In this document: piece after piece, positions 3,191 through 57,037 of the stretch
Numbering within the stretch: the stretch's first letter is position 1
Layout: the number at the start of each line of letters is the position of its first letter
NCBI GenBank assembly: GCA_964345775.1
Contig: CAYFSO010000002.1
Span: forward strand, 15,679-79,678
Source of the DNA: an uncultured Leptospiraceae bacterium
GTDB taxonomy: Bacteria; Spirochaetota; UBA4802; UB4802
DNA: 64,000 nt
Reading direction: 5' to 3'
Notes under the pieces: model-generated
Seen by the model: the letters and a program-made list of their open reading frames with translations, nothing else
Database searches by the model: none
Told to the model about the DNA's origin: nothing
Translations under genes and position numbers: made by a program

Positions 3191-3198
3191 AAGGAGGT

Positions 3199-4323
3199 AT
3201 GAGAACAAGTGATCATATGCATGTGTCCACGCTTACATTAAAAAATTTCAGGAACTATGATCAGCTTGTCCTTGATTTTTGTCCCGGCCATAACTTTATT
3301 ACAGGACCGAACGGTACGGGGAAAACCAATATAATCGAGGCACTTGCAGTACTGTCACAGGTTAGATCATTCAGGAACGTACCTGACAACCAGATAATCC
3401 AGTGGGGCCAGGAACAGTATTACTGCAGTGCTGCCATTGAAGGCACACCGTACCACCGTTTTGAAGTTGGATGCGCGAAATATGGTGAAAGTGTAAAAAA
3501 AAAAGCTAAAATAGATGGTAAGGAAGTAAAAAAGATATCCGATTATTTCGGGAAGTTCGTGACCATAGTCTTTTCACCGGGTGATACCGTGCTGGTATAT
3601 GGATCTCCGGATGTACGCAGGCGTTTTTATGATGGTGTGATTTCAAAGACGGATGCGGTATATATTGACCATTTGCAGGAATTTAGAAGAATACTTAAAA
3701 ACAGGAATTCACTGCTGAAAGATATACGTGATGGAAGCAGGGATCCCCGGCAGCTTGATATATGGGATCATATGCTGGCTGAAAAATCCTCTGTCATTAT
3801 GACCAGGAGAAACTCTGCCGCTGAAAGGGCATTGCCGCTTTTTCAAAAAGCCTATGCGTCAATTTCCGGGTACGAGAAAATACCAGTGATACGGTATCGC
3901 CCCTCAATCGAGGGAGTTGATACCGAAGATATTATGAGGGTGTTCAGGAAAAACAGGAAAAGGGATATTCTGTCGGGAACCACTACCGCGGGACCCCAGA
4001 GAGATGATTTTATAATTGAGAACGAAGAAAGAAGGGAGTTTGAATATTTCGCGTCTGAAGGACAGGTACGAATGGCTTCAATTTCACTGAAGGTTGCCGA
4101 GATGCAGATGGTTGAAGAGGGATCAGGCCAGAAAGCAGTACTCCTTGTTGACGATATTATGTCACAACTGGACCAGCAACGGAGACATAATGTTGTTGCT
4201 TTTTTTCAGGGAGGGAATCAAATTCTGTTTACAATGGTAGATGCAACACGTGTAGAGGGATATGGAGGGCAGGAACGTATATTCGTAGTTGATGAACAGG
4301 GAAGGGTGGAAAACAGGAAATGA
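3199..4323 (+). CDS. recF: DNA replication and repair protein RecF
   Basis: N-terminal Walker A motif GPNGTGKTN, SMC-like ABC ATPase with C-terminal signature/D-loop (LLVDDIMSQLD), synteny after dnaN. Confidence 0.95.
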   Translation: MRTSDHMHVSTLTLKNFRNYDQLVLDFCPGHNFITGPNGTGKTNIIEALAVLSQVRSFRNVPDNQIIQWGQEQYYCSAAIEGTPYHRFEVGCAKYGESVKKKAKIDGKEVKKISDYFGKFVTIVFSPGDTVLVYGSPDVRRRFYDGVISKTDAVYIDHLQEFRRILKNRNSLLKDIRDGSRDPRQLDIWDHMLAEKSSVIMTRRNSAAERALPLFQKAYASISGYEKIPVIRYRPSIEGVDTEDIMRVFRKNRKRDILSGTTTAGPQRDDFIIENEERREFEYFASEGQVRMASISLKVAEMQMVEEGSGQKAVLLVDDIMSQLDQQRRHNVVAFFQGGNQILFTMVDATRVEGYGGQERIFVVDEQGRVENRK

Positions 4324-4682
4324 GATTCAGGCTTGGCGAAAAAAGAGAGTATAGAGCGGTTTCCTTCAAGTCACTGCTTCCATCTGTTATTCATGATTTT
4401 GATCTTGACGATGAATACATACTCGGGCAGGTACAGGTCATCTGGCCCGAGGTTGTTGGAGAGATAATTGCAACCCATTCTTTTCCAAAAAAGATATTGA
4501 ATGGGATACTGTACATAAGTGTTGATCATCCGGTGTATGCTAACGAGATAGGAATGATACAGAACAGTATACTTGAGTCTATACGGGAAACACATAGGCT
4601 GGTAATGATAAAGAGTATACGGACAGATATTGAAAAGAATAATGTCAGATCAAGACCTGTGAAAGGATATAAAAAGGGGTAG
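4320..4682 (+). CDS. DUF721 protein (DciA-like predicted helicase loader)
   Basis: 120 aa. The start overlaps the recF stop (ATGA). Conserved DUF721 pattern (W.E.VG..IA.HS.P..L.NG.L.I.V....) and typical location between recF and gyrB. Confidence 0.7.
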   Translation: MRFRLGEKREYRAVSFKSLLPSVIHDFDLDDEYILGQVQVIWPEVVGEIIATHSFPKKILNGILYISVDHPVYANEIGMIQNSILESIRETHRLVMIKSIRTDIEKNNVRSRPVKGYKKG

Positions 4683-4684
4683 AC

Positions 4685-6824
<2,140 letters not shown>

Positions 6825-6867
6825 TATGGGTAATATAATAAAATAATCATGTTGGAGTATAAGAGTC

Positions 6868-10775: not shown

Positions 10776-12311
10776 TTACCCTGTAAGACGGATATAATAT
10801 TCTGTGGCCTTTTGTAACAAGCGCTCATCGGGATGGTGTAACGAAGCCTCAATAATGCGTGCGCGTATTTCCCGGTTCCCCAGTACTTCCTTTATATGAT
10901 CCAGGGAGATATATTTTTGCAGGGGAGAAATATCGGAAATAATGTTTTCCATCATGGCTTTCTTGTTAAGAGAAAGATGAACACGCTCATGCAAAAAATC
11001 TTCAACCCTCATGTCAAGAACACCAGGTAAAGGCAGCCCCTTACCGGAGGCATGGTATATGGTACCGGGCACTTCGCTCATAAGGGAAGAGATGGTATCA
11101 CGGTACTGTAAAAAGGATCTTCTGGTATACAGTCCCTTCTCCCGCAATCCGCCGGATGACTTCATTATATAGTTCATGTTCATCGTCTGAACCGTGGATA
11201 TCCTGTTGCATCGGGTTCTGTATGTATGCTGGTACTGGCTGTCAGACGCGTAAACAGAAAAACCGGGGAAGGACGAATCAAGTCCTGTGACAAGAATGGG
11301 CGAAAAGCCAGCAAGGGCTGCAAAGCGAACGGCGTCTCCTGCAACCGTCCCGGTTTTACTGTCCACCGAACCCGTGAGGCCGGGATAGAGTTCATCCACG
11401 GCCTGCGCAAGGGGATGTGTATTCAGTGACAGGAACGTAGAAGGAAAGCGCATCGTTTCAGGATGTGCGGTGATACTGCAGATGTGCCATGTGTGATCAT
11501 TATGCCATGTAAAGGTATGCGCATTCACCTGTGATTGCGGATCGATGGAAACACAGAAATCGGGAACAATGCCGTGTGCCCTGCATACCTGAAGCGCTGA
11601 ATCAACGGCAATGATGAAAATGCTCTCATGTATGGAACGTAACTGGTTAATGTAGAGGTCAAGGGAAGGCCCCGGGATGAGAATAACCGCTGAACTTCCT
11701 GAGAATGCCGAAACGGTCTCCCGTACAGGAAAAAGCCCCGGGATGGTGTTGAGGTTGTGCAAACCGTTTTTCAGGTATTTCCAGCCCAGGGATGCCCTGG
11801 TAACCAGGCTTGAAGACTGTTGTGCAACATGCTGCCGAAGAAGCCCCCGTATTCTTCCATAGTAGGACGGGAAGGCCCGTAAAGATGCGGGGTGCTCATA
11901 TACCTGGAAACCCCTGGCAGAATCGAGGTCAAGAAGACCTGAAAGCAGGTGCATTACCTTCTCAGGCGTTTCTCCACACACAAGCCGAGAGGCCGGGTTT
12001 TCAAGCAGACCGGGAAAAGCAAAGTGTTTTCGCATGTCATCAGCGGCTGGAAGTTTCTCAACCAGTATTACCATGCTGTAGATACCTATTGACCTGGCAA
12101 CGGTTTCCAGGTGATGTCCCAGGCCGGTTCCAAGCACTACCAGTATGTCATATTTATCAGGGTGTATATCCCTGGCTGCAACGGCTGCCTCCCGTGCGGG
12201 ATTATAACGGCTGTGCAGGTATACCCTTGATCCTGATTCATCAACTGTTGAGAGGGTATAATCACCGTGTTTTGTTGTTTCTATGGTATATGTTGGAGAA
12301 GTCTTATCCAT
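10776..12311 (-). CDS. DUF115 family protein (MptE-like / motility-accessory-factor-like)
   Basis: 511 aa with Rossmann-like cores (ILVVLGTGLGHHLE, AVILIPGPSLD). Overall resemblance to the DUF115/Maf family. Assignment by pattern only. Confidence 0.5.
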   Translation of the reverse strand: MDKTSPTYTIETTKHGDYTLSTVDESGSRVYLHSRYNPAREAAVAARDIHPDKYDILVVLGTGLGHHLETVARSIGIYSMVILVEKLPAADDMRKHFAFPGLLENPASRLVCGETPEKVMHLLSGLLDLDSARGFQVYEHPASLRAFPSYYGRIRGLLRQHVAQQSSSLVTRASLGWKYLKNGLHNLNTIPGLFPVRETVSAFSGSSAVILIPGPSLDLYINQLRSIHESIFIIAVDSALQVCRAHGIVPDFCVSIDPQSQVNAHTFTWHNDHTWHICSITAHPETMRFPSTFLSLNTHPLAQAVDELYPGLTGSVDSKTGTVAGDAVRFAALAGFSPILVTGLDSSFPGFSVYASDSQYQHTYRTRCNRISTVQTMNMNYIMKSSGGLREKGLYTRRSFLQYRDTISSLMSEVPGTIYHASGKGLPLPGVLDMRVEDFLHERVHLSLNKKAMMENIISDISPLQKYISLDHIKEVLGNREIRARIIEASLHHPDERLLQKATEYYIRLTG

Positions 12312-12433
12312 TGCTTCAGGTTACCGGGTAATAAACTATTGCGCTTTTCACGGTTCCGTGCATAATGGTTCTCACGGTATACGATACTGTCATCGACAAT
12401 TACGGCAGCAAACTTCTGAAAAAAAAATATGCT

Positions 12434-13270
12434 ATGAAGATAATAGATTTCCATACACATATCTTTCCCCCCCGTCTTGTACAGGACAGGTCTTCCTTCC
12501 TTGAAGATGAGCAGTTGTACTGCATATACCGGGAAGAACGGGCACGACTGGCCACACTTGAAGACCTGCTGGGGTACATGGATGAAGAAGGGGTAAACGG
12601 GGCGGTTGCCATGGGATTTACCTGGCAGATCCCCCGGTATGCGGAGCTACATAACAGGTACCTTGCCGAGGCACAGGAAACCGGCAGGAAGAAAATATGG
12701 TCATTTGGATCAATAGCCCTTGAGCCGGGAACCATACAAAACCAGGTGAAAATGATACATGAAATGGGGCTTGCCGGCATAGGTGAGATCTCGTTTTACA
12801 GGGAAGGAATGAAAGGTAAAAGCCCGGAGATCCTGGCAACGGTGCTGGCAGAAGGATGCAGGTATAATTTGCCGGTATGTATTCACGTGAACGAGCCCGT
12901 GGGTCACCTGTACAGCGGGAAGTACAGTCCCGACATAGAAATGCTGTACCAGATCATAACGCAATACAGGGAGATCCCCGTTATTCTCTCTCACTGGGGG
13001 GGTGGGCTTCTTTTTTACGAATTGATGAAGGAAGTACAGCGTGACCTCTCGCACGTATACTATGACATGGCGGCCACTCCTTTCCTGTATAACGAGAAGA
13101 TCTACCGCCTGGCTGTTGATATCTGCGGAGGAGAAAAGCTCTTGTTTGGTACAGATTTTCCACTGCTGAGAACAGGCAGGTACATTGATCCTATCGAACG
13201 CATGGTTACAGATCCAGAAACCCGGAACTTTATCTTACATAAAAACGCGTTTCGTATTCTGGGAAACTGA
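12434..13270 (+). CDS. Amidohydrolase-family metal-dependent hydrolase (TIM-barrel)
   Basis: N-terminal IDFHTHIFP metal-binding HxH motif and later His/Asp residues typical of amidohydrolase_2. Confidence 0.6.
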   Translation: MKIIDFHTHIFPPRLVQDRSSFLEDEQLYCIYREERARLATLEDLLGYMDEEGVNGAVAMGFTWQIPRYAELHNRYLAEAQETGRKKIWSFGSIALEPGTIQNQVKMIHEMGLAGIGEISFYREGMKGKSPEILATVLAEGCRYNLPVCIHVNEPVGHLYSGKYSPDIEMLYQIITQYREIPVILSHWGGGLLFYELMKEVQRDLSHVYYDMAATPFLYNEKIYRLAVDICGGEKLLFGTDFPLLRTGRYIDPIERMVTDPETRNFILHKNAFRILGN

Positions 13271-43752: not shown

Positions 43753-45249
43753 CTATATATATTTTGGCTCCTTGTAGGAGTGCATGTCATGAACCCCGCC
43801 TTCTATCTGTGCTGACATTGATCGCATCTCAAATCGCAGTTCATTGGAGTGTAGCTTCTGGTGCAGAAGCGATACGCTACTGGTTCCTATGTCCTGAAAA
43901 GAATGTTTTAATCCCTGAAAAATGTATGGTAGATAGTCAAGCAGTGACCCCTTGTCTACAACGGCACCCGAAACACCCTGGGCTACCTTGATCTTGGATT
44001 CCTCGGCGAAATATCTCTTTGAGCCGCCTTTTTCCATTGCCTCAATTGATGCCATGCCACGGTATCTTTTCAGGCGGATACCGTTTTCATAAAAGTATTC
44101 ACCCGGGGCTTCCTCGGTACCGGCAAGCATGGATCCCATCATAACGGCAGAAGCGCCAATGGAAAGGGCCTTTGCAATATGACCGATATTGGCAACACCA
44201 CCGTCTGCCACAACGGGAATATCGTGCTTTCGTGCGTAGCGGGCACAGCGGTATACAGCCGTTGCCTGTGCGCGGCCAACTGCCATGGTGGTTTGCGTAG
44301 TACATATTGATCCTGGCCCCATGCCGATCCTGAGCGAATCAGCACCCGCCTTGATGAGATTTTCACACTGTTCTTCTGAAACAACGTTGCCAGCCATTAC
44401 ATCAATTTCGGGATAGGACTTTTTAATATACTTGATCATTTCGATCTGGTAAATGGAATTTCCCTGGGCCGAGTCGATGACAACAAGGTTTACACCTGCC
44501 TTTGCCAGTTCATGCAGCCGTTCCCTTGATTCGTCCTTGGTAGAGATGGCAGCGCCAACCATTAGCTGTTTTCGTGCGTCTTTTGAGGCACATGGGTATT
44601 CCCTGTTGGTGAGCAGGTCGTTCCGGCTCATAAGAGATACAAGGTGCCCGTTTTCGTTTATGATCGGCAGTTTTCCTTTCTTCGAATTTTTTAATATATC
44701 ATTTGCTTCGAAAAGTGTAACACCCTCGTGGGCCGTGAGAAGGTCGGTTGTCATAACCTCCCGTATCTGTTTGGACCTGTCATGCTCAAAATCAATGTCC
44801 CGGTTGGTAACGATACCGATCAGCTTTGAATAGAGATTCCCATCCTCGGTAATTGGAATACCAGAAAAACCATACTCATCTTTTATCCTGTCTATGTCCT
44901 GTATGGTATGCTGGGGTGAAAGAACAACAGGGTCCATGATGAAACCATTCTCATAACGTTTTACCTTTCGAACCTCGTCCACCTGTTCGTCGATGGAGTT
45001 GTTATAATGGATAATTCCGATACCACCAAGAAGCGAAAGAGTAATGGCCATCCTTGATTCTGTTACCGTGTCCATGGGACTTGAAATAACGGGCCGTTTG
45101 ACAATTATATTACGGGATACCCGTGACTCAAGATCAACCTCTTCTGGATTGAAGTCAATAAACCCCGGTAAAATTATGAAATCGTTGTACGCGATACCAT
45201 GTACTGTATCGAAGAGTTCCTGTGCGCTGAATCCGTCTTTTTTTGTCAT
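43753..45249 (-). CDS. guaB: IMP dehydrogenase (with CBS pair)
   Basis: Catalytic loop [23 protein letters not shown], tandem CBS domains. Start at the internal MTKKDGF. Confidence 0.95.
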
Positions 45250-45496
45250 TGTTTGCTCCTGTTGATAGAATAATAGCAATTGGGGAGTGCATCTTTGTCA
45301 AGCAATTACAAGATTGTCTCACGATTTTATATAAATGTAGCTGTTTATTGGCATCTTTCAACAAGAATTTTCATTAATATGAGCTGAGAAATTCATAATG
45401 GCACAGGTAATTTTACTTGCCATGTACATATTGAAAATGTCAATATAGATGAAGTGTTATTCAACAGGGAATGCGTATTTGAGCAGGAGGGGCAAC

Positions 45497-45856
45497 ATGA
45501 AAACCTGTAAGCGATGTGGCCAGTGCTGCCAGGATGTAAGGCTTGCAGAGCCTCCTGATCTCCTTGAAAAGGCATACCGTTACTGGCGAAAATCCAAAGA
45601 GATCGATCCTTCTTTTTCAGAGATATACCTGATCTATCCAATGCTTGTATTCAAGTACGAGGACCAGTCAGAGGATCTTCCATACCATTATTCGTGTAAA
45701 CATTTCTTAATGGATATTGATGGCAAACCGGGGTGTTCAATTTATGAAATACGTCCGCGAATGTGCAGGGATTTTCCCTATTACGATGAGGTGGAACACC
45801 TGAACAGGGATGAACCCCTGAGTCCATACAGTGGTTGTGGCTATAACGAGGGTTAG
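45497..45856 (+). CDS. YkgJ-family CxxCxxCC metal-chelating (Fe-S/Zn) protein
   Basis: N-terminal CKRCGQCCQ exactly matches the YkgJ-family CxxCxxCC motif. About 120 aa. Confidence 0.6.
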   Translation: MKTCKRCGQCCQDVRLAEPPDLLEKAYRYWRKSKEIDPSFSEIYLIYPMLVFKYEDQSEDLPYHYSCKHFLMDIDGKPGCSIYEIRPRMCRDFPYYDEVEHLNRDEPLSPYSGCGYNEG

Positions 45857-46954
45857 ATGATGGAAGTGGTGATAACTGGAGCCGCCTTTTTCGGCAGCAT
45901 GCTGTCATTCCTTATCGCGATGGGTCAGTTGGTGGTTACCTACAGGAGACTGGAGAATATTAACCTGGCCTTCCTTTTTACCTGTGTGGGGATCGTTCTT
46001 GTGCAGTACGGTTTTATGCTGAATAATACTGTTTCTCAAGTACCCGGGCTTGTATCGTTTCACCTGACCATTCTTTACCTCCTTGGACCGTTATTGTATT
46101 ATGCCTATTACCTGGTTATGCGATTCGAGGATGTTCTGCCCCTTTCCAAGCTACTGTACATGATGCCGGCTGTTTTTGCGCTGATTCTGGATCTATGGTT
46201 CTTAGGCAAACCTGTATTGTACCGCGAAATGATCATAGGTGAAATGTTCAGAAACGATGTTTCAGATATGGTGATGATCATTCGTGTTCTGATACTGGGG
46301 GCAGCTGTGCAGGCTGCATTGTACCTGGGGTTACTCTTAAAGAATATACTCATCTTCTGGAGATTCAGGGATTATTCTGCCATAACCACCATAACGCTGA
46401 TTTATATTGTAATATCAACGGTATCTCTTTTGCTCATAGCTGCAGCATTCATGTTCGGCTCGTTGGTCGTGTTACAGGTAAGCGTGGTATTCATTACCCT
46501 GCTTTTGATGGGTACGTACCTTGTGGGTCAGAGACACCCTGAATTTCTCCAGGTGCTTATCAAGGAGGCCAGGAAAAAGAGGTATGAAAGATCACTTTTA
46601 AATGGCTATGCCACTGATGAGTTGTGCTCACGTTTGCAGCACCTGATGGATGCCGAAAAGGTGTACGCCTGCGAAGATATAACATTGAAACAGCTTGCAG
46701 AGGAACTGGAACTTACCTCGCATCAATTGTCACAGCTGCTAAATGAAAATTTGAACATGAACTTTAATACCTTCGTCAACCAGTTCAGGATCCGTGATGC
46801 GAAACGCATGCTGGTTGAAGAACCGCAAAGATCCGTGTTGTCAATTGCTTACGCGGTAGGGTTCAATTCCAAGTCTTCCTTTTACGATGCGTTCTCTCGA
46901 TTCACCGGAAAAACGCCACAAAAGTACAGAAGGGACAATCTAACCGGTAGGTAA
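45857..46954 (+). CDS. Membrane-anchored AraC-family transcriptional regulator (6-7 TM helices plus C-terminal AraC HTH)
   Basis: Hydrophobic N-terminal 230 aa. C-terminal AraC signature (LSIAYAVGFNSKSSFYDAFSRFTGKTPQKYRR). Confidence 0.7.
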   Translation: MMEVVITGAAFFGSMLSFLIAMGQLVVTYRRLENINLAFLFTCVGIVLVQYGFMLNNTVSQVPGLVSFHLTILYLLGPLLYYAYYLVMRFEDVLPLSKLLYMMPAVFALILDLWFLGKPVLYREMIIGEMFRNDVSDMVMIIRVLILGAAVQAALYLGLLLKNILIFWRFRDYSAITTITLIYIVISTVSLLLIAAAFMFGSLVVLQVSVVFITLLLMGTYLVGQRHPEFLQVLIKEARKKRYERSLLNGYATDELCSRLQHLMDAEKVYACEDITLKQLAEELELTSHQLSQLLNENLNMNFNTFVNQFRIRDAKRMLVEEPQRSVLSIAYAVGFNSKSSFYDAFSRFTGKTPQKYRRDNLTGR

Positions 46955-47160
46955 TTATAAATCTGGTCGAAGAGTGCCTGTGCGCGTGGTAAAAAATATA
47001 TATAATGACATTGTGCAAAAACCATGTAGTTATTTAAAGACACCTTTTTTTGTGTATTAATTGAAAAATGGGGCACAATATATATATACGTATTAAAGGT
47101 TTTAATCATTAACGCTGCTGTTGCATGGTTTTGCTGTAAGAACTTCCTGGAGGATACCAT

Positions 47161-47676
47161 ATGGGAATTCTTTTTTACGCATTGATCAGCCTGATCTCTT
47201 ACCTGGTATTGACTGCCGGTTCAGGGGATGTTTTTATGCTTTGGTCCATCGAAGAACTGGTTGCAGGTGTGGTAATCAGCATGTTCCTGGGGTTTGTCTG
47301 TCACAACATAATTCCCAGACCCGTGAACGTCCAGGCATTTAATCCTCTCAGGTGGATCCTGGTCCTTCTGTATGTTGTCGGGCCATTCTTTATGATGCTG
47401 ATTGTTGCGAATGTTGAAGTAATTTACAGGGTACTTTCCGGAAAGATCAATCCTGCCATCGTGAAAGTTGAAACCGGGCTGAAAAGTGAAACCGGTGCCT
47501 ATATACTTTCTAACTCCATCACCCTTTCTCCAGGTACGCTCACCATAGAGTTGGAGCCTGATACACACGTATTATACATTCACTGCCTTAACTGGAAAAA
47601 GGAAAAAGGTGAAAAGGCGGAGCCCGGGGACGTATCAGGTATATTGCATTTTTTCATTAAGAAGATTTTCGGGTAA
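47161..47676 (+). CDS. Mrp/Mnh antiporter subunit E-like (MbhA-like)
   Basis: First gene of the Mbh-type operon. 171 aa, TM helices, MnhE-like. Confidence 0.65.
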   Translation: MGILFYALISLISYLVLTAGSGDVFMLWSIEELVAGVVISMFLGFVCHNIIPRPVNVQAFNPLRWILVLLYVVGPFFMMLIVANVEVIYRVLSGKINPAIVKVETGLKSETGAYILSNSITLSPGTLTIELEPDTHVLYIHCLNWKKEKGEKAEPGDVSGILHFFIKKIFG

Positions 47677-47691
47677 AAGGGGAGATATTTC

Positions 47692-47952
47692 ATGGAAACC
47701 ATGCTTATAGTATCGGTACTTCTGTTAAGCATATACATACTACTGATCGTGATTCGAATTGCCTTCAGTCATAATGTACCGGAAAGGATCGTTGCCCTTG
47801 ACACCATCAACACCATGATCATAACCATGATGGTTGTACTTGGAGCGGTAGAGCGGAAGGCTCTTTATATCGATATTGGCATTGTATATGGTATTATTTC
47901 ATTTATTGGCACGCTTTATATTGCCAGATACCTGATTGATGTGGGGAAATAA
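47692..47952 (+). CDS. Mrp subunit F-like (MbhB-like)
   Basis: 86 aa, three TM helices, MnhF-like. Confidence 0.65.
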   Translation: METMLIVSVLLLSIYILLIVIRIAFSHNVPERIVALDTINTMIITMMVVLGAVERKALYIDIGIVYGIISFIGTLYIARYLIDVGK

Positions 47953-48305
47953 TGGATACAGCTATTTATATTCTGCTTGGAATAGGATTGTTCGTGAACG
48001 CCATGAGTATCGTGGGAATTCTGCGATTTCCTGATATGTATACCAGGCTGCATGCTGCAACCAAGACAACAACCTTTGGCAGTATTTTCATGGTGATCGC
48101 GGTGATCCTTCACAGCATAATACTGTCAGATGCTGCCAGTACCGTTATTATAATACACTCTGCCGTAGCCCTCCTGGTTGTCATTTTCACCAACCCCATC
48201 AGTGCGCATGCCATAGCCCGCGCGGCCCTGATTGAAGGCATAAAGCCTGCTGGCGCACAGATCAACGAGTTTGACGAGAAAAAGAAGAGGGAGGCAAAAG
48301 GATGA
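47952..48305 (+). CDS. Mrp subunit G-like (MbhC-like)
   Basis: 117 aa MnhG-like. Start overlaps the upstream stop. Confidence 0.65.
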   Translation: MDTAIYILLGIGLFVNAMSIVGILRFPDMYTRLHAATKTTTFGSIFMVIAVILHSIILSDAASTVIIIHSAVALLVVIFTNPISAHAIARAALIEGIKPAGAQINEFDEKKKREAKG

Positions 48306-48547
48306 TCTCATCGGTAATATTTATCATGTTGTCAATAGTTATGATTGTTACAGCCGTTCTCAGCCTTTACTTTCGCGACCTCCTTGCAAGCGTGGTGAGT
48401 TTCTCGGTTATGTCGCTGGTGTTGACGGTAATGTTCTTTCACCTTGACGCTCCCGATGTTGCAATCGCCGAGGCTGGAATCGGTGCTGCGCTGACAGTGT
48501 GTGTGTTTGTGATCGCAATAAAGATGACCAGGAGAAGAGAAGAATGA
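48302..48547 (+). CDS. Small membrane subunit (MbhD-like)
   Basis: 81 aa, 2-3 TM helices. Translationally coupled (ATGA overlaps). Confidence 0.5.
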   Translation: MISSVIFIMLSIVMIVTAVLSLYFRDLLASVVSFSVMSLVLTVMFFHLDAPDVAIAEAGIGAALTVCVFVIAIKMTRRREE

Positions 48548-49374
48548 GACTGGCAAGTTTTTTATCACTGGTATTGATAGCCGGGTTCCTGTTTGTGGGC
48601 ATACTCAGGCTGCACCCGGTTGGTGAGCCGCTGGGTAATCCCCGTGTTTTTGAAGACAGGAGCAGCCAAATTACAGACATCAAGAATGTTGATACCATGG
48701 ATGATTATTACCTCAGGAACGGGCAGACCGAAACAGGCTCCAACAACCTTGTTGCAAGTGTTGTCTTTGATTACCGCAGCTTTGATACGCTTGGTGAAGC
48801 GACCGTGCTTTTTATCGTTGTTTCAAGCATATCCATGCTTCTGTTTACCCTCGTTAAGCGAAGGGGTACAGAAACAAGCGGTGTTAGCCGGATGAGAGAA
48901 TTCCCGGATGGTGTGTCACGCGTTATCACCTTCAGTTCTTTTCTTCTGTATATCTTGATTGTTACATTTGGTATATACCTGGTTGTGCATGGTCACATTT
49001 CTCCTGGAGGGGGATTCCAGGGTGGTGCTGTCATGGCTTCGGCCACTGCGCTGCTCTTAATAAGCTCACTTATAACCAGGAACGTGCAGAAAACCAAAAA
49101 GGTATTCTCATTTTTTGAGTCATTCGGGCTTACACTGTTTATCGGCATCGGTTTTGCAGGGATCGGGGTATCTTTTCTTTTCAATTTCCTGGCAAATGTT
49201 GACCCCACATTTTTTGGTAGAACGATCGGGTTTGGCCCAAACCCTGGCTATCTCGTGTCCGGCGGCACCCTGCCCCTGTTGTCCCTGGCAATTGGTATGG
49301 AGGTGTTTTTCGGCCTGAGTATCATACTGGTTACCATGTATCACGCTGCAAAAGACGAAAAGGCTGGAGAATGA
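48544..49374 (+). CDS. MnhB-domain membrane subunit (MbhE/F-like)
   Basis: About 276 aa polytopic protein, MnhB-like, in the Mbh gene order. Confidence 0.6.
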   Translation: MRLASFLSLVLIAGFLFVGILRLHPVGEPLGNPRVFEDRSSQITDIKNVDTMDDYYLRNGQTETGSNNLVASVVFDYRSFDTLGEATVLFIVVSSISMLLFTLVKRRGTETSGVSRMREFPDGVSRVITFSSFLLYILIVTFGIYLVVHGHISPGGGFQGGAVMASATALLLISSLITRNVQKTKKVFSFFESFGLTLFIGIGFAGIGVSFLFNFLANVDPTFFGRTIGFGPNPGYLVSGGTLPLLSLAIGMEVFFGLSIILVTMYHAAKDEKAGE

Positions 49375-49377
49375 ACT

Positions 49378-49737
49378 ATGTCGGATTTCTTTCTATACGT
49401 GACGGTTGTGCTGCTGATCTTTTTCGGACTGGTGGCCATTCTCTACAAGAGAAACCTTATCAAGTTAGTTATTGCCCTGAACGTTATACAGGCAGGGGTA
49501 AACCTGCTTTTCATAACCCTTGCCTACAGGCCTGATGGGACTGCACCGATTTTTACCCTTGCCCCGGCGGTAGAGGAATTGAAGATGGTACTGCCAACGC
49601 CACAGGCACTCATCCTGACCAATATTGTTATAGGGTTTGGAACCACCGCCCTTATGCTGACACTGGCCATCCTGACCTATCAGAATAATCGTACACTGGA
49701 TATACGCAAGTTAAGAGGTGTAGAGAACAATGACTGA
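49378..49737 (+). CDS. MnhC/NuoK-like subunit (MbhG-like)
   Basis: 119 aa, three TM helices, NuoK/MnhC pattern. Confidence 0.7.
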   Translation: MSDFFLYVTVVLLIFFGLVAILYKRNLIKLVIALNVIQAGVNLLFITLAYRPDGTAPIFTLAPAVEELKMVLPTPQALILTNIVIGFGTTALMLTLAILTYQNNRTLDIRKLRGVENND

Positions 49738-51446
49738 TCATATCCCGGTATTAATAATAGCCCTGCCGCTTCTAACCGCTTTTATGCTGCCTATTGCGGG
49801 CATGATAAGTACACGCCTTCGAAATATACTGGTATTTCTGGTCATCGTGGCGGTTAACCTGATGCTTCTTTCTCTTGTGCAGCGGGTTTCCATGGGGGGA
49901 GAGGTGCTCCATTACGTTGTTGGCGCGGCGAACCCCCAGCAGGTAATAATGGAGGGGCTTGATTTTCCAATACGGATTGTCCTGAAAATAGACGGGTTTT
50001 CTCTTTTCATGGCACTGATTTCAGGGGTCATTACCCTGGTTGTTTTCCTGTTCTCATGGAGTTATATACAGGAAGGGGAGCGCAAAAATTATTACCTGCT
50101 GCTGATGCTGCTGATCCTTGTGGGAATGCTGGGTATCGAGTTTACCAATGACCTTTTTAATCTTTTTGTTTTCCTGGAAGTTTTATCAATTTCGTCCGCG
50201 GCCCTGGTGGCTTATCGAACCGAGCGCAAGCATCCGCCGTATGCAGGATTCAAGTACATGCTGGTCAGTGCCATAGCTACAAGTTTCCTGCTGATGGGTA
50301 TCGCCCTCTGCTATGCCCAGTACGGCTCGTTTAACATGGATTACATCCATGGCATGATGCAATACAGCATGCTGGATAAGATGGCAATGGTCTTCATGCT
50401 GGTTCCACTTGCCATGAAGGCCGGGGCCATACCAATGCACATGTGGGTACCCGATACCTATTCGGAGGCACCGGCACCAATCAGTGCCATGTTGAAAACT
50501 GCCAGCATGGCAAGCCTGTATGCTCTATTCAGGCTGTCTTTGTCCCTGTTCGGTAACCCCCTTGAAGGCCCCGGGATGAACTATCATACACTTGGGTGGT
50601 TTGTCATCGTCCTCGGGGTGTTGTCAATGTTCATAGGGGTAACCATGGCACTTGTGCAGCACGACGTGAAGCGCCTGATGGCATTTCACGCGGTGTCCCA
50701 GACAGGATACATGCTGCTTGGTGTTGGCGTGGGTATCGCGGTACATGCAAACGCCGACGATGGCAGTGCCTTCAACCTTTTTGGAAAGGTGGCCATGATG
50801 GGCGGGATCTTTCACATGATGAACCATGCCTTTTACAAGGGACTACTGTTCCTTACCTCGGGAGTGATGGTACGGAGGTTCGGGACCCGTGGGTATCGCG
50901 GTACATGCAAACGCCGACGATGGCAGTGCCTTCAACCTTTTTGGAAAGGTGGCCATGATGGGCGGGATCTTTCACATGATGAACCATGCCTTTTACAAGG
51001 GACTACTGTTCCTTACCTCGGGAGTGATGGTACGGAGGTTCGGGACCCGTGACCTGAACAGGATGATGGGGATGGCCCACCGGGATACGTTTACGACGAT
51101 TGCATTTATCATCGGGGCCCTGGCCATTGCGGGTATTCCTCCTTTCAATGGGTTTTCATCGAAAATACTTCTTTATGAATCCGTGTATCGTTTCAGCCCC
51201 GTATTGTCAATTATCGCCATTTTTGTTTCGGTGCTGACACTGGCCTCATTCGTAAAAGTGTTTTACAGCGCCTTCCTGGGGCCCGAGAGAAAGGACATGA
51301 TCGTTGATGAAACCCCGGTTTCACCCGGTATGACGCTGGGGATGGGAATACTGTGCGTGCTGGTAGTTGGGTTCGGGCTGTTCCCGGACCTGGTTGTGGG
51401 GATTATCGTAGAACCGGCTGTCAATAGCCTGGTAACAATACTGTGA
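49730..51446 (+). pseudogene. MnhD/NuoL-like proton-pumping antiporter subunit (MbhH-like), frameshifted by a 160-bp tandem duplication
   Basis: ORFs 49730..51052 and 50889..51446 are the two halves of one NuoL/M/N-family gene (conserved MMNHAFYKGLLFL motif) in different frames. A perfect 160-bp repeat at the junction explains the shift. Confidence 0.8.
50728..51051 (+). repeat. Perfect direct tandem duplication, 2 x 160 bp (unit about 50731-50890 repeated at 50891-51050; boundaries ambiguous by up to 3 nt)
   Basis: Read directly: gggtatcgcggtacatgcaaacgccgacga...ggaggttcgggacccgt occurs twice consecutively with no mismatch. Confidence 0.95.
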
Positions 51447-51464
51447 CAGGGGTGATGTGCTAAA

Positions 51465-51818
51465 ATGTTTACAGTGGAAAAGATATTTACTCAAAACACC
51501 GGGATAATCTGGTATCCCCTCCTGCTGATAGCAATATTCCTGCTGCTTGTGTTTATTCTGTGGGTATGGGGTCGGTATTATTTCAGGAATGATTACAATG
51601 AAAAAACAGCACAGGTAAAACCCTTTAACTCGGGAAACCTTGAGGAAATAGATTACTCAATCAGGTCGGGGAACCTTTACTGGGGCTTCAAGAAGGCACT
51701 TGACGGTTTTTATAACTGTATGGAATCACTGCATACCGGCGACCTGAATGATTACATGGTCTGGCTGTTCCTTTCCATCGGTGTAGTGCTTCTCCTGGTC
51801 AGTGGAGGATTATTATGA
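51465..51818 (+). CDS. Small membrane subunit (MbhI-like)
   Basis: 117 aa with two TM helices, at the Mbh operon position between the antiporter and hydrogenase modules. Confidence 0.5.
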   Translation: MFTVEKIFTQNTGIIWYPLLLIAIFLLLVFILWVWGRYYFRNDYNEKTAQVKPFNSGNLEEIDYSIRSGNLYWGFKKALDGFYNCMESLHTGDLNDYMVWLFLSIGVVLLLVSGGLL

Positions 51819-52270
51819 AAAAGAAACTGCTGAATACCTCGTTTAAACGGTCGTTGTGGGCATTCCACATGAACACCGGTTCCTGTAACGCCTGTGATAT
51901 CGAGATACTGGCAACCCTGATGCCACGATATGATGCTGAACGATTTGGCATCAAGCTGGTGGGTACCCCCCGGCACGCTGACGTGCTGCTGGTAACCGGT
52001 ACGGTAACCGAGAAGATAAAGGACCGTGTACTGCGTGTGTATGAACAGGTGCCCGATCCGAAGCTGGTAATAGTAATTGGCGGATGCGGTTCCACCAAAG
52101 GTGTATACCAGGAGTCCTATGCCATGACGGGACCAATAGATAATTATATTCCCGTTGACGTGTACATCCCCGGCTGTCCACCCAGGCCTGAGGCCATACT
52201 GTACGGGGTTGCCAGGGCATGGGAAAAGCTTGAATTATTGATGAAAAAAGGAAAGAAGAATGCATCCTGA
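51815..52270 (+). CDS. [NiFe]-hydrogenase small subunit, NuoB-like (MbhJ-like)
   Basis: [4Fe-4S] ligands in NuoB spacing (GSCNACD...GGCGSTKG...PGCPP). Confidence 0.9.
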   Translation: MKKKLLNTSFKRSLWAFHMNTGSCNACDIEILATLMPRYDAERFGIKLVGTPRHADVLLVTGTVTEKIKDRVLRVYEQVPDPKLVIVIGGCGSTKGVYQESYAMTGPIDNYIPVDVYIPGCPPRPEAILYGVARAWEKLELLMKKGKKNAS

Positions 52271-52733
52271 TGATATAGTAGCAAGGTTCAGCAGTGAACT
52301 GAAAGGGCATTTTACCGCCTCAAGAATACAGGAAACACCCGAGGGCAGGGATGGTTTAAATAAAAGGACCAGGCTGTGGCTCAACGTGGACCGTGACGTA
52401 TTTCACCGGGCTGTGGCTCTCTTGAAAGAATTCGGTCCACCCCATATTTGTACTCCAATGGCATCAAAAGAATACGATCAAACAATGGAGCTCATTTATC
52501 CGTTCACGTTGAACTATGCCGCGGAACGATACGGTGAACTGGTTGTGATAATCGTGGTAGATATACCCAGGGATGACATGCGCATCAGGAGTGTCAGCGA
52601 CCTGGTACCGGGTATACTGTACATGGAACGTGAAACAATGGAAATGCTTGGCGTCATTATTGAAGATATCCCTGATCCAAGGCGCCTTTTTACTACTGAC
52701 GGCCTGGGTGATTCTTTTCCCATGCGGGACTGA
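52260..52733 (+). CDS. NuoC-like 30-kDa subunit (MbhK-like)
   Basis: 157 aa NuoC/HycE-N-like fold, located between NuoB-like and NuoD-like genes. Confidence 0.75.
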   Translation: MHPDDIVARFSSELKGHFTASRIQETPEGRDGLNKRTRLWLNVDRDVFHRAVALLKEFGPPHICTPMASKEYDQTMELIYPFTLNYAAERYGELVVIIVVDIPRDDMRIRSVSDLVPGILYMERETMEMLGVIIEDIPDPRRLFTTDGLGDSFPMRD

Positions 52734-52775
52734 CGGGAACTTTTGCACTAATAACTGTATGGAGATGTTGTAACC

Positions 52776-54014
52776 ATGGAAAAATCAATAACCTATCCTT
52801 TACAGATAGGGCCTACACATCCGGCATTCAAGGAACCAGTACGATTCTCTTTCAGGATGGACGGGGAGCGAGTATCGGATGTTGATATAGACCTGGGGTA
52901 TACCCACAGGGCCATCGAGGTAATTTCGAAAGAACGTAATTTCATCCAGACCATTTATCTGCTGGAACGGATATGTGGTATCTGCTCTGTGTCACATCCC
53001 CTGGCGTATTGCCTGGCAGTGGAGGAGGTGGCAGGGATGGAGGTCCCTCCCCGTGCAAAGTATATACGTACGATAGTGGGTGAGCTCGAACGCCTTCATT
53101 CGCACCTGTTGTGGGCAGGGGTTGCCGCCCACGAGATCGGGTTTGACACCCTCTTCCTCTATACATGGAATATCCGCGAGAAGGTGCTTGACTGTCTGGA
53201 ACAGTTCACCGGTAACAGGGTTAATTACGCGCTGCTTACTATTGGTGGAGTACGCCGGGATATTACGGAAGAGGTTTTCCCCGTAATCGAGGAGACGCTG
53301 GAATACTATACCGAACTGTTTCAGCGTGCATCAGAGATACTGCTTGATGACCAGAGCATACGTTTCAGATGTGAAGGGACGGGTATACTCACATATGAAC
53401 AGGCTGTCGCGTTATGTGCGGTGGGACCCAACGCACGTGCCTCGGGACTGGCGAAGGATGTCAGGGTGGATTACCCGATACTGGCGTACCCGGACATGGA
53501 CTGGCTTAAGCCGGTAACCCCCAGGGACATTGGAAAGGAACCGGTTGGTGACGTGTATGACCGCATGGTGGTCAGGGTGATGGAGATCAGGCAGTCGGTG
53601 GATATTATACGATACTGCCTGGATAACCTGCCTGACGGCCCAATCGCGCTGGAAAAAGGTGCCATTAAGATTATAAACAAGCTTAAGAAAGTGCAGGGAG
53701 AAGGTATAGGCCGTTACGAGGCCCCCAGGGGAGAGGTGGCCCATTACGATATTCTTGATCTGAACGAGTGCCCGGTGCAGATGAAGGTAAAGGCACCAAC
53801 GTATTCCAATGCCTTCACATGGGTACCCATGCTGCAGGGGACGGAAATAGCGGATATCCCCATCGTTATCGCATCAATTGACCCCTGTGTAGCCTGTGCT
53901 GACCGCATGACCATACTCAGGAATGACGGTTCAGTGGAAGCATTGAACGCAGAGTATTTACACAACCTGAGCGTTAAAAAGATGAAGGAGGTTAGGTCCC
54001 GATGCAGTGGTTGA
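52776..54014 (+). CDS. Group-4 [NiFe]-hydrogenase large subunit, NuoD-like (MbhL-like)
   Basis: N-terminal Ni-Fe ligand motif RICGICSVSH and C-terminal DPCVACADR, followed by a 34-aa C-terminal extension. Confidence 0.92.
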   Translation: MEKSITYPLQIGPTHPAFKEPVRFSFRMDGERVSDVDIDLGYTHRAIEVISKERNFIQTIYLLERICGICSVSHPLAYCLAVEEVAGMEVPPRAKYIRTIVGELERLHSHLLWAGVAAHEIGFDTLFLYTWNIREKVLDCLEQFTGNRVNYALLTIGGVRRDITEEVFPVIEETLEYYTELFQRASEILLDDQSIRFRCEGTGILTYEQAVALCAVGPNARASGLAKDVRVDYPILAYPDMDWLKPVTPRDIGKEPVGDVYDRMVVRVMEIRQSVDIIRYCLDNLPDGPIALEKGAIKIINKLKKVQGEGIGRYEAPRGEVAHYDILDLNECPVQMKVKAPTYSNAFTWVPMLQGTEIADIPIVIASIDPCVACADRMTILRNDGSVEALNAEYLHNLSVKKMKEVRSRCSG

Positions 54015-55036
54015 TATATATATTTGTCATACCTGTAACGGTGCTTATTGCGGGCGGGATAATCGGACTGTACGCGAAGGGGATAGACCGCAAGTTGGCC
54101 GCCTATTACCAGTCCCGTATCGGCCCGCCGGTACGACAGCCGTTTTATGATATCAGCAAGCTGATGCAAAAGCAGACCATAATACCTGAAAATGCGGTTG
54201 GGTGGATATTCAGGGGAGCGCCTTACATGGCACTTGCTTCCAGTGTTATTTTGCTTGTATACGTGCTTGTCCCGTACTTCGCGTGGATCGGTGGTGCCGA
54301 TTTCTTTTTCAGCAACAGTGGTGATATTATCCTGGTGCTGTACCTTTTGATGATCCCATCAATAGCACTGGTTGCCGGAGGGTTCGCATCGGGCTCACCA
54401 TATGCAACTGTTGGGGCACAGCGTGAAATGGTTATACTCATGTGTGTAGAACTGCCTCTGGCGGTAATCGCGGTTACGTTCGCCTGGCGTTTGTCTAACG
54501 TTGCACCCGCTTTACCGCCGTTTTCTCTTGTTACCATGACAAGTCATCCGTTATGGACGGGCATGGGGCCCTTCGGCATACTGGGAGGAATGCTGCTGGC
54601 ACTGTCAATGGCGGTGGTGATACCGGCCGAACTCGCAAAGATACCCTTTGACCAGGCGGAAGCGGAGACCGAGATAGCCGAGGGGCTTCTTGCAGAATAT
54701 TCCGGTAAATACCTGGCCTTTTACCAGGTAGCTGATGGTGTAAAGTCGCTCGCGGTAATTTCTCTGGCGGTGATATTGTTTTTTCCCCACGGATTTACGC
54801 AGATGACGGGTTACGTGGTGCAGCCGGGCGGGATGGATATTACCCTCCTGGTTGATACGGGCCTATTCATGGCGAAGGTGTTTGCTGTCTATTTCGTCTC
54901 GGTTACAACCGTACGAATAGCCATGGCGAGGTTCAAAATTTCACAGGTTGCAAAACTGTTTTTGATCACCATAACCGTTATGTGTTTGGCCGGTTACGTG
55001 TTGATCACGCTTGATCCGGTTATTGCAACACTTTGA
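54002..55036 (+). CDS. NuoH-like membrane subunit (MbhM-like)
   Basis: 344 aa polytopic, NuoH/HycD pattern. Confidence 0.8.
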   Translation: MQWLIYIFVIPVTVLIAGGIIGLYAKGIDRKLAAYYQSRIGPPVRQPFYDISKLMQKQTIIPENAVGWIFRGAPYMALASSVILLVYVLVPYFAWIGGADFFFSNSGDIILVLYLLMIPSIALVAGGFASGSPYATVGAQREMVILMCVELPLAVIAVTFAWRLSNVAPALPPFSLVTMTSHPLWTGMGPFGILGGMLLALSMAVVIPAELAKIPFDQAEAETEIAEGLLAEYSGKYLAFYQVADGVKSLAVISLAVILFFPHGFTQMTGYVVQPGGMDITLLVDTGLFMAKVFAVYFVSVTTVRIAMARFKISQVAKLFLITITVMCLAGYVLITLDPVIATL

Positions 55037-55054
55037 TTCACGAGGAGCGCAACA

Positions 55055-55489
55055 ATGCTTGGTGCAGTATATAAAGTAATTGAACAGTTTTTTTCAAACA
55101 AATCAACCAATCTTTTCCCGGTAAAATATATTCCCGAATCAACCGGGGATATGCTTCAAGATGGCGGGATCAACCCACCGGTACCTCTACCGGAAGGCAT
55201 AAGGGGCCGGCTTGCGTATGATTATGATACCTGTATAGGGTGTGCCATGTGTGAAAAAGTGTGCCCTGCCAGGGCCATTGAGCTTTATCCCGTAAAGGCG
55301 GGTGAAAAGAAATCAAAGCGTATAGTAATATTTCTTTCACGGTGTACCTATTGTGGCGAATGTGTTGATATCTGTCCCAAGAACTGTATAACCATGGAAA
55401 AATTCGTGTTCATGGCCGGTTACGATAAATACGGGGATGAAATGATTATCGGATCTGCTGAACGGGTGAAGAACGAGATTGAAGATTAA
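55055..55489 (+). CDS. NuoI-like 2x[4Fe-4S] ferredoxin subunit (MbhN-like)
   Basis: Two CxxCxxCxxxCP motifs (CIGCAMCEKVCP, CTYCGECVDICP). Confidence 0.85.
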   Translation: MLGAVYKVIEQFFSNKSTNLFPVKYIPESTGDMLQDGGINPPVPLPEGIRGRLAYDYDTCIGCAMCEKVCPARAIELYPVKAGEKKSKRIVIFLSRCTYCGECVDICPKNCITMEKFVFMAGYDKYGDEMIIGSAERVKNEIED

Positions 55490-55500
55490 GGCTGAAAGCT

Positions 55501-55764
55501 GTGTTCAGAAAAAAGAAAATTCGAGTTACCATAAAGCTATACAGCGGATTACATAAGGATGCCGGGTTGAAAGAGTATGATCCTTACAGTGGCATTGTGC
55601 AGGAAGTGAATTCCGGCACCAGGGTACGGAAAATTGTAAAGGAACTCGGCATCCCGCATCCATATTCACTGGCGTATTTTATAAACGGTGAACGTGTTGG
55701 TCTCTGGAAAAAGATGCATGATGGTGATGAGCTTTCCTGTTTCAGACCATCTGGCGGTGGTTGA
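55501..55764 (+). CDS. MoaD/ThiS-family beta-grasp sulfur-carrier-like protein with C-terminal Gly-Gly
   Basis: 87 aa ending ...DGDELSCFRPSGGG, the ThiS/MoaD pattern. Lies 12 nt after the mbhN-like stop. Confidence 0.55.
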   Translation: MFRKKKIRVTIKLYSGLHKDAGLKEYDPYSGIVQEVNSGTRVRKIVKELGIPHPYSLAYFINGERVGLWKKMHDGDELSCFRPSGGG

Positions 55765-55767
55765 GCT

Positions 55768-56499
55768 TCATAAAAGGTAATCATCCAGCCTGTGAGAAAG
55801 AGACCGGAATATATTGGTGCGCGCGTTCTTGTAAAGCCTGTCACAATGCTTCAACATTTCCTTCACATCCGATCTTTTCGTGTCTTTTTTATACGGGCAC
55901 TTGTTCTCGTACCCATTGAAATCTTTAAGGTTCCTGTACCAGATCACTTCCTTCTCGGAAAGATAGGCCAGGGGCCGTATTATTTCCAATTCCCCATCGA
56001 ATAATTCAAGACGTGGTGGCATGGTTGACATGTTCCCATGGTATACCATGTTCATAATAAATGTTTCCAGTATGTCGTCACGATGATGCCCAAAAGCGAT
56101 CTTTTTGCATCCAAGATCCCGGGCCAGAGTAAAAAGGGTTTTCCTTCTATGCCATGAACAAATAAAACAGGGTGTTTTGCTGGTATCGGAAAAATCCAGT
56201 GTAACCCGGCATACATGAAAATCTATGTTATAGGATTCGCAAAATCTTCCATAGTCTTCAACCTCGTCTCCACTGGTAAAATTGGTAACATGTACGTATG
56301 CAGTATGAATGGTATAGTTCACGGGCATATGAATGCGTCGTTGTGCAAGGGCGTCAAGCAGGACCATGGAGTCCTTCCCCCCTGAAAAAGCGACCAGCAC
56401 CGAATCGTCTGCCTTGATCATGGAGTAATCGTTTATTGCGCTGCCAACTTTTCTGCGAAGGCGCCCAAGGTACTTTTTTTCTTTATTATTTTTCATCAA
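55768..56499 (-). CDS. ttcA: tRNA 2-thiocytidine(32) synthetase TtcA
   Basis: PP-loop SGGKDS, GHHRDDILET, MPPRL, IRPLAYLSEKE and CxxC/C cluster ligands, all close to E. coli TtcA. Confidence 0.85.
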   Translation of the reverse strand: MMKNNKEKKYLGRLRRKVGSAINDYSMIKADDSVLVAFSGGKDSMVLLDALAQRRIHMPVNYTIHTAYVHVTNFTSGDEVEDYGRFCESYNIDFHVCRVTLDFSDTSKTPCFICSWHRRKTLFTLARDLGCKKIAFGHHRDDILETFIMNMVYHGNMSTMPPRLELFDGELEIIRPLAYLSEKEVIWYRNLKDFNGYENKCPYKKDTKRSDVKEMLKHCDRLYKNARTNIFRSLSHRLDDYLL

Positions 56500-56680
56500 A
56501 AACGTTTAAAACCTCAATTAAATATATCAAGTATATCACGAATACGAAAAAACATTAGCATGGATAAGTTATGATATTATCAATTTTTGAAAAAACTGGT
56601 TAAAAATGATTGATAAGTCAAATTAAAATTTTTACAATGCTATAAGTAATCAAGAGATACTATTTTTCAGGAAGGTTGCC

Positions 56681-57037
56681 ATGGCGAAGGCTATGATCGT
56701 GGATGATTCGAAGTTCATGAGGCGCATTATCAGGGAAACCCTTGAAGAAGGCGGTCATGAGATAGCGGCTGAAGTTGATAATGGTGTTGATGCGATAACC
56801 ATGTACAACGACATGAAACCGGATTTTGTCACAATGGATATCACCATGTGGGGAAAGGATGGATTAATGGCAATAGAGGAGATATCAGAGAAATTTCCTG
56901 ACGCGAGAATTGTGGTCATATCCGCACTTAACGAAAAAACGTTACGGCTCAACGAGAAGAATATCAACGCAAGGGCATTCCTTACAAAGCCCTTTGATAA
57001 ACAAGAACTTCTTGATGTTGTCAACAAGATCATATGA
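56681..57037 (+). CDS. Single-domain response regulator (CheY-like receiver)
   Basis: 118 aa with DD...D...T...K receiver residues (IVDDS, TMDITM, K in LTKPF). Confidence 0.85.
   Translation: MAKAMIVDDSKFMRRIIRETLEEGGHEIAAEVDNGVDAITMYNDMKPDFVTMDITMWGKDGLMAIEEISEKFPDARIVVISALNEKTLRLNEKNINARAFLTKPFDKQELLDVVNKII

Follow-up and report, generated by a model that had tools for sequence, protein, structure and literature searches.

This report concerns a 64,000-nucleotide stretch of contig CAYFSO010000002.1 (the window), which comes from an uncultured, Leptospirales-affiliated member of the Spirochaetota, and a hydrogenase operon located at 47161-55489 on its forward strand. The operon is bacterial, comprises 13 genes, and encodes a [NiFe]-hydrogenase of the Mbh (membrane-bound hydrogenase) type, belonging to HydDB group 4d; we place the probability of this reading at about 0.9. 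One of the genes, mbhH, is frameshifted in the deposited record by a 160-bp tandem duplication, while the operon of the source population is intact.

What places the locus in this class? Group 4d is defined in HydDB as ferredoxin-coupled, Mrp-linked, and Na+-translocating (PMC5037454), and the predicted gene content of the locus fits this definition. Eight subunits (A, EF, H, I, J, L, M, and N) were compared with proteins of solved structure in the PDB. For A, H, J, L, M, N, and, weakly, I, the closest comparable chain is the counterpart in the MBH of Pyrococcus furiosus (6CFW). The large subunit MbhL matches 6cfw_L at 2.8e-112 (378.8 bits, 48% identity), followed by HycE (1e-69, 238.5 bits), Nqo4 (3.5e-58, 200.6 bits), and MbsL of the P. 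furiosus MBS complex (1e-51, 179.4 bits). Similar rankings are obtained for MbhH in its intact version (6cfw_H 4.2e-94 vs. MrpA 1e-52), MbhM (6cfw_M 1.1e-45 vs. HycD 8e-23 and MbsM 1e-20), MbhJ (6cfw_J 3e-56 vs. HycG 6.4e-45), and MbhA (6cfw_A 8.7e-31 vs. MbsA 2.9e-14). Intact MbhH keeps E150, K230, and K370 in alignment with P. furiosus MbhH, and close homologues of MbhL carry the JGI label 'membrane-bound hydrogenase subunit alpha'.

The Mbh-type identity proposed in a first-pass annotation of the window is borne out by these rankings for L, H, M, J, and A and by an NCBIfam match of MbhI. According to Pfam and the PDB, an Mrp-type membrane module of seven genes lies in the same operon as the hydrogenase module. 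The Mrp/Mbh homology that the annotation had ascribed to these upstream membrane genes is present: Pfam families MNHE, MrpF, MnhG, MbhD, MbhE plus MnhB, Oxidored_q2, and Proton_antipo_M are all matched, as are chains 6cfw_A, 6cfw_H, 6cfw_E, and 6cfw_F.

The coordinates, gene content, and order given for the co-directional cluster in the first-pass annotation agree with the map of open reading frames (ORFs), Pfam, and NCBIfam. Intergenic gaps and overlaps range from -13 to +42 nt, and a purine-rich, Shine-Dalgarno-like stretch precedes most of the starts. A family could be assigned to all 13 genes (Pfam and NCBIfam), which follow the order mbhA-B-C-D-(E+F fused)-G-H-I-J-K-L-M-N, all on the + strand. 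The same annotation had described the operon as complete, with thirteen genes. This holds for duplication-free assemblies, where thirteen intact genes are found, but not for the present sequence, which is incomplete because the 160-bp duplication frameshifts mbhH. A promoter and terminator scan of 45200-57000 found sites no more frequent than in shuffled sequence and therefore gives no grounds for drawing the limits of transcription units.

The membrane arm begins with mbhA (47161-47676, 171 aa, MrpE-like; Pfam MNHE 2.4e-29, with 6cfw_A as the top PDB match), mbhB (47692-47952, 86 aa, MrpF-like; Pfam MrpF_PhaF 2.5e-17, NCBIfam PRK12599.1-1 4e-23), and mbhC (47952-48305, 117 aa, MrpG-like; Pfam PhaG_MnhG_YufB 1.4e-22, NCBIfam PRK12672, whose cut-off of 122 is exceeded with 128 bits). 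These are followed by mbhD (48302-48547, 81 aa; Pfam MbhD, PF13244, 5.2e-16) and by a fused mbhE-mbhF gene (48544-49374, 276 aa, ATG at 48544; Pfam MbhE and MnhB). The fused gene is also called as 276 aa by the gene callers in three other assemblies. Its product matches 6u8y_E, the fused MbsE, at 3.9e-24, 6cfw_F at 4e-20 over residues 134-262, and 6cfw_E at 6e-11 over residues 52-100. The 81-aa plus 276-aa pattern had been singled out as different from the Pyrococcus arrangement. It does differ from P. furiosus MBH; however, it is not unusual, since MbsE has the same fusion and so do all 14 of the related species examined, which are Spirochaetota/Leptospirales metagenome-assembled genomes (MAGs) taken from the GTDB representatives. 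The E-F fusion is no oddity but an arrangement that runs through the lineage and had been seen before.

Next come mbhG (49378-49737, 119 aa, MrpC/NuoK-like; Pfam Oxidored_q2 1.5e-22, NCBIfam PRK08388 2.6e-28) and the disrupted mbhH (49730-51446), which encodes the MrpD-like antiporter subunit and whose Pfam Proton_antipo_M match is split over two ORFs. The product of mbhI (51465-51818, 117 aa), the MBH-specific membrane subunit, finds no match in a Pfam search. It is recognised by NCBIfam MbhI (NF053600, 6.2e-22); at 77.9 bits against a curated cut-off of 95, homology is clear and equivalog status is not reached. Its match to 6cfw_I is weak (E=0.015) but covers almost the entire protein and includes a conserved HTGxLxDY stretch; there is no other credible match. 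The position of mbhI between mbhH and mbhJ and its size (117 aa vs. 115 aa) are also conserved.

The hydrogenase module starts with mbhJ (51815-52270, 151 aa), a NuoB-like small subunit (Pfam Oxidored_q6; top PDB match 6cfw_J). The Cys residues of its GSCNAC, GGC, and GCPP motifs align with the cluster ligands of 6cfw_J; an MbhJ subunit has four Cys for the proximal [4Fe-4S] cluster. It is followed by mbhK (52260-52733, 157 aa, NuoC-like; Pfam Complex1_30kDa 2.6e-15), the [NiFe] large subunit gene mbhL (52776-54014, 412 aa; Pfam Complex1_49kDa and NiFeSe_Hases), and mbhM (54002-55036, 344 aa), encoding a NuoH-like membrane anchor (Pfam NADHdh 1.3e-53). The last gene, mbhN (55055-55489, 144 aa), encodes a NuoI-like subunit with 2x[4Fe-4S] (Pfam Fer4 families; NCBIfam PRK08348 7.7e-36). 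MbhN contains two CxxCxxCxxxCP motifs, CIGCAMCEKVCP and CTYCGECVDICP. Its match to 6cfw_N (7.7e-20) is the best among complex-I-type and single-module subunits, although multi-domain polyferredoxins score higher.

The Ni-Fe ligand motifs reported earlier for the large subunit, RICGICSVSH and DPCVACADR, are present in MbhL and align with ERMCGICSFSH and DPCLSCTDR of 6cfw_L. Downstream of DPCVACADR, MbhL carries a tail of 35 aa (34 aa had been reported). A tail of 30-36 aa occurs in 116 of the 120 nearest MbhL homologues that show the motif. The cleavage context DR/MTIL (the slash marking the site) is close to DR/MTVV of Escherichia coli HycE, and the deposited chain of P. furiosus MbhL (6cfw_L) stops exactly at the Arg of the aligned DR site. 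In five relatives with 69-71% MbhL identity, hycI (PF01750) lies directly downstream of mbhN on the opposite strand. Apart from the length of the tail, the proposal of maturation by a HycI-type protease is supported by the near-universal presence of such tails and by the hycI genes adjoining mbhN in these relatives. The extension implies HycI-type cleavage, to judge from these alignments: MbhL would be made as a precursor and lose its 35-aa tail through a cut behind Arg377, and the gene for the HycI-type protease responsible would lie in another part of the genome.

Could the complex be something other than a H2-evolving hydrogenase? Related Mrp-linked respiratory complexes come into question: a quinone reductase resembling complex I, an enzyme of the Ech type, a group 4b or 4c enzyme coupled to formate or CO, and a reductase of the MBS/MBX type acting on sulfur or polysulfide. 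The NuoB/C/D/H/I core is common to all of these complexes, some of them contain Mrp subunits, and the fused E-F subunit is closest to MbsE of MBS. However, MbhL has all four Ni-Fe cysteines, which have been lost in MBS/MBX and in NuoD. It scores 379 bits against MBH but 179 against MBS and 201 against Nqo4, and MbhH, MbhM, MbhJ, and MbhA rank likewise. MbhI is present, and none of the annotated genes of the whole window encodes a formate dehydrogenase, a CO dehydrogenase, or a hycB-like partner. Ech enzymes are not known to contain MrpE/F/G-type subunits, which are found here. A non-H2-evolving complex is very improbable on this evidence.

MBS/MBX, formate hydrogenlyase (FHL; 4a/4b), CO-linked enzymes (4c), Ech (4e), and complex I were rejected on the Ni-Fe ligands, the PDB ranking, MbhI, and the gene context taken together. 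The retention of all four Ni-Fe Cys and the scores of the MBS chains, well under those of MBH, argue against MBS/MBX. The seven-gene Mrp-type module and MbhI argue against Ech, which has six subunits and no MrpE/F/G/B-type proteins. Complex I (Nuo), with a NuoD devoid of Ni-Fe ligands and a membrane arm of NuoA/J/K/L/M/N, does not agree with the Ni-Fe ligands, the single antiporter-like subunit, and the MrpE/F/G homologues seen here.

Several points nevertheless weigh against a functional group 4d hydrogenase. The separation from groups 4b, 4c, and 4e-4g is based on the PDB ranking, MbhI, and gene context instead of a phylogeny with reference sequences. Most NCBIfam matches, including that of MbhI (77.9 vs. 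95 bits), fall under narrow, archaea-trained cut-offs. As had been remarked in the first-pass annotation, no hyp or hycI maturation genes are seen in the window: tblastn with the HycI proteins of the relatives does not find hycI in the 64 kb (E>0.5), and there is no hyp family among the annotated window genes, in a set that comprises, for the first 24 kb, ORFs of at least 140 aa. Finally, the frameshift in mbhH, if real, may leave the enzyme of this genome non-functional.

How might an Mbh-type complex of this composition work? Homology with P. furiosus MBH, whose mechanism was reportedly set out by Yu et al. in 2018, is the basis on which we infer the electron donor, the direction of the reaction, the ion specificity, and the cleavage of MbhL. 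Reduced ferredoxin would donate electrons to the two [4Fe-4S] clusters of MbhN, and the proximal cluster of MbhJ would pass them on to MbhL, at whose Ni-Fe site H2 would be formed from protons. The energy released would be relayed via MbhM and MbhI to the Mrp-like membrane arm. There, MbhH together with MbhD, MbhE, and MbhG is the predicted proton path, and MbhA-C plus MbhF (MrpE/F/G/B-like) would form a Na+/H+ exchange module. The net outcome would be a sodium- or proton-motive force.

The membrane arm is the part of the operon that is damaged in this record. A repeat search found a perfect 160-bp tandem duplication in mbhH, with copies at 50728-50887 and 50888-51047 (Tandem Repeats Finder: period 160, 2.0 copies, 100% matches). 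The unit is bounded by the tetranucleotide CGTG, and this 4-bp microhomology carries the identity on to 51051. The junction between the first and second copies, at 50887/50888, reads GGGACC/CGTGGGTATC (the slash marking the junction). Since 160 is not divisible by three, the reading frame of mbhH is broken. The first ORF (49730-51052, 440 aa) comprises native residues 1-387 followed by 53 out-of-frame residues; the second (50889-51446, 185 aa) overlaps it and comprises native residues 334-518. When one copy of the repeat is removed in silico, a 518-aa ORF is restored that is identical to the intact gene in a near-identical assembly. No other tandem repeat is found in the 64-kb window.

The duplicated residues include K370, which by its alignment with 6cfw_H is taken to be the conserved lysine of transmembrane helix 12 of antiporter-like subunits. 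As written, MbhH would lack in-frame C-terminal helices; its predicted products suggest that this copy is probably inactive, unless the two fragments can complement each other. At 50874-50891, the junction happens to bring a GGAGG to a distance of 10 nt before the in-frame GTG with which the second ORF starts. Separate initiation of translation is thus plausible for the C-terminal fragment (residues 334-518).

Is the duplication shared by other members of the population? MbhL is 100% identical to a protein encoded on contigs of three other assemblies, JGI 3300012002, ENA ERZ922774, and Logan ERR1878606. None of these has the duplication, and all encode an intact 518-aa MbhH. On either side of the repeat, their DNA is 99.95-100% identical to the window, and the sole gap is the 160 extra bases. 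The 89-kb NCBI contig is the sole recorded source of the truncated 440-aa product, while the 518-aa product is recorded from JGI, ENA, and Logan. The duplication is therefore not typical of the organism, and the source population has an intact operon. Among the 14 related species, mbhH is uninterrupted except for a scaffold gap in CAYNFB010000074.1. This gap, a run of 10 N within 7230-7400 with partly duplicated flanks, is an assembly artefact, and the break was accordingly rejected as a case of parallel inactivation.

Has the duplication arisen in a cell or in the course of sequencing? The microhomology and the length of the unit point to polymerase slippage, either in vivo or during library preparation. 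We lean slightly towards a genuine mutation in the strain or in a subpopulation, caused by replication slippage between CGTG tetranucleotides 160 bp apart. The two copies are 100% identical with microhomology of 4 bp at their borders, and flanking identity of at least 4 nt has a chance probability of about 1.6%. Short-read assemblers usually use k-mers shorter than 160 bp, so that a contig with two copies of a unit of this length would need reads across the novel junction. Furthermore, no second tandem repeat occurs in the 64 kb, and the contig ends of the other assemblies do not fall at its site. Against a mutation stand its absence from three independent assemblies with 99.95-100% identical flanks, the uninterrupted mbhH of all 14 related species (one scaffold gap aside), and the fact that MAG records do contain assembly artefacts, such as the 10-N gap described above. 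If the mutation is genuine, the Mbh operon in this genome is a very recent pseudogene or loss-of-function allele, with sister populations intact.

A substantial chance, falling somewhat short of even, remains with an amplification, sequencing, or assembly artefact, for example a chimeric template or a misresolved graph loop; the operon would then be intact and functional. The intact MbhH of the JGI, ENA, and Logan assemblies, in DNA that is otherwise near-identical, is what such an error would predict, as are the restriction of the truncated product to one record and the lack of any divergence between the copies. On the other hand, a tandem duplication bounded by microhomology is a signature of polymerase slippage and not of contig end-joining, and no second artefact of this kind occurs within the 64 kb. 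End-joining of contigs is itself an unlikely cause because of the period of 160, the 4-bp microhomology, and the location of contig ends elsewhere in the other assemblies. It is quite improbable that the duplication is both real and functionally meaningful, either as a reversible switch, in which homologous recombination between the identical copies would bring back the wild type, or as a split but working antiporter-like subunit assembled from the two ORF products. A switch of this kind would create population heterogeneity in H2-evolving respiration.

The 13-gene order and the E-F fusion are identical in 14 of the 14 related MAG species. For example, GCA_964629365.1 (88%) and HGW-Spirochaetae-1 GCA_002839375.1 (70%) have the same order and the same fusion with an intact mbhH. 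The surroundings of the operon are also syntenic in the relatives, with IMPDH upstream and CheY, cNMP-binding, PadR, flagellin, and RuvABC genes downstream. Such a syntenic housekeeping neighbourhood points to long vertical residence of the operon in this lineage.

Two clades of relatives differ in their flanks. In the closer clade these are as in the window, with a CxxCxxCC gene upstream and ThiS-like, TtcA-like, CheY, cNMP-binding, and PadR genes downstream. The second clade has hycI directly after mbhN instead of the ThiS/TtcA pair. In the window, the ThiS/MoaD-like gene (55501-55764, + strand) begins 11 nt after mbhN and encodes 87 aa ending in SGGG; its Pfam ThiS match of 1.4e-4 is just at the cut-off. 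It occupies the same place in seven relatives, with a partial match in CAZAOK010000005.1. The gene is probably co-transcribed with the mbh operon and is not a known Mbh subunit.

Within 55501-56499, the ThiS-like gene is followed by a convergent gene for a 243-aa PP-loop ATPase. Its best NCBIfam match is TtcA at 188 bits, under the cut-off of 272, and a weaker match to TtuA is also seen. The two genes form a sulfur-carrier/thiolase-like pair that follows mbhN in the same seven relatives and, in part, in CAZAOK010000005.1. In the latter relative (12262-12820), mbhN is matched no further than residue 115 of its 144, and the ThiS-like gene is matched from residue 57 onwards; these boundaries suggest a deletion of about 176 bp fusing mbhN with the ThiS-like gene, or another assembly error.

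Upstream of the operon, a gene with a CxxCxxCC domain (PF03692 by Pfam; 45449-45856, + strand) is found, which precedes mbhA in 8 of the 14 relatives. Between it and mbhA lies a gene for a 365-aa regulator of the AraC type (Pfam; 45857-46954, + strand), whose N-terminal region looks membrane-spanning; it is kept in the four closest synteny matches. The CxxCxxCC gene and the AraC gene might be considered candidates for an accessory factor or a regulator of the operon. Far upstream of the operon, at 433-9351, dnaA, dnaN, recF, gyrB, and gyrA stand in a row, which puts the start of the window in the replication-origin region of the chromosome. The cumulative GC skew climbs from this region until about 60 kb.

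The nearest named MbhL homologues outside the Spirochaetota come from Atribacterota and from Thermoplasmata archaea, at about 54-57% identity compared with 48% for P. furiosus. This pattern of identities hints at inter-domain transfer in the history of the family. Group 4d enzymes are known in other bacteria, for example in Synergistota (PMC10867827). The fermentation described for a cultured spirochaete uses an [FeFe]-hydrogenase (PMC6052044). No dedicated description of Mbh or group 4d enzymes in spirochaetes was found in a literature search of incomplete coverage. The ENA assembly ERZ922774 belongs to project PRJEB25599, which is mentioned in a study of Andean microbial ecosystems (10.1101/870428). 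One source of the lineage is apparently an Andean microbial-mat metagenome.

What do these data mean for the organism? In an uncultured, Leptospirales-affiliated lineage of spirochaetes, a respiratory hydrogenase of the archaeal Mbh style is stably maintained. If the operon functions as predicted, such spirochaetes may conserve energy by pumping ions as ferredoxin drives the evolution of H2, and [FeFe]-hydrogenase fermentation would not be their sole route to H2. This would be useful for models of H2 flux in mats, and leaves the understanding of the enzyme family unchanged. The duplication in the deposited record would mislead automated annotation into calling mbhH a split gene or a pseudogene.

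How does the operon compare with characterised systems? In the Mrp Na+/H+ antiporters (PDB 7QRU, 6Z16, and 7D3U), MbhA, B, C, D, EF, G, and H correspond to MrpE, F, G, the C-terminus of MrpA, B, C, and D, respectively. Unlike these antiporters, the module described here lacks the N-terminal antiporter-like domain of MrpA and is joined genetically to a hydrogenase module. E. coli FHL-1 (HycB-G; PDB 7Z0S; group 4a) shares the group 4 [NiFe] core, and HycE is the second-best match of MbhL. The cleavage context DR/MT(V/I) is near-identical to that of HycE, and a dependence on HycI is predicted here as in FHL-1. By contrast, an MrpE/F/G/B-type module and MbhI are missing from FHL-1, which works together with formate dehydrogenase H; none of these partner genes is found in the window.

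The MBS/MBX complex of P. furiosus (PDB 6U8Y) is Mrp-linked with the same core, and its fused MbsE of 235 aa is the best PDB match of the mbhEF product (3.9e-24). MBS is a polysulfide reductase without the Ni-Fe cysteines, which are present here, and the scores of subunits L, M, J, A, and H against MBS are far below those against MBH. P. furiosus MBH (mbhA-N; PDB 6CFW; group 4d) differs in its hyperthermophilic archaeal host, the present operon being from a bacterial member of the Spirochaetota, and in mbhH, which is frameshifted in this record. It is encoded by 14 genes, with D, E, and F separate; the operon described here has 13 because mbhE and mbhF are fused. The operon is an ordinary member of the family, in which the duplication is the only unusual feature. 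It shares with P. furiosus MBH the set of subunits, the order of the genes, the Ni-Fe motifs, the cluster ligands of MbhJ and MbhN, and the C-terminal extension of MbhL.

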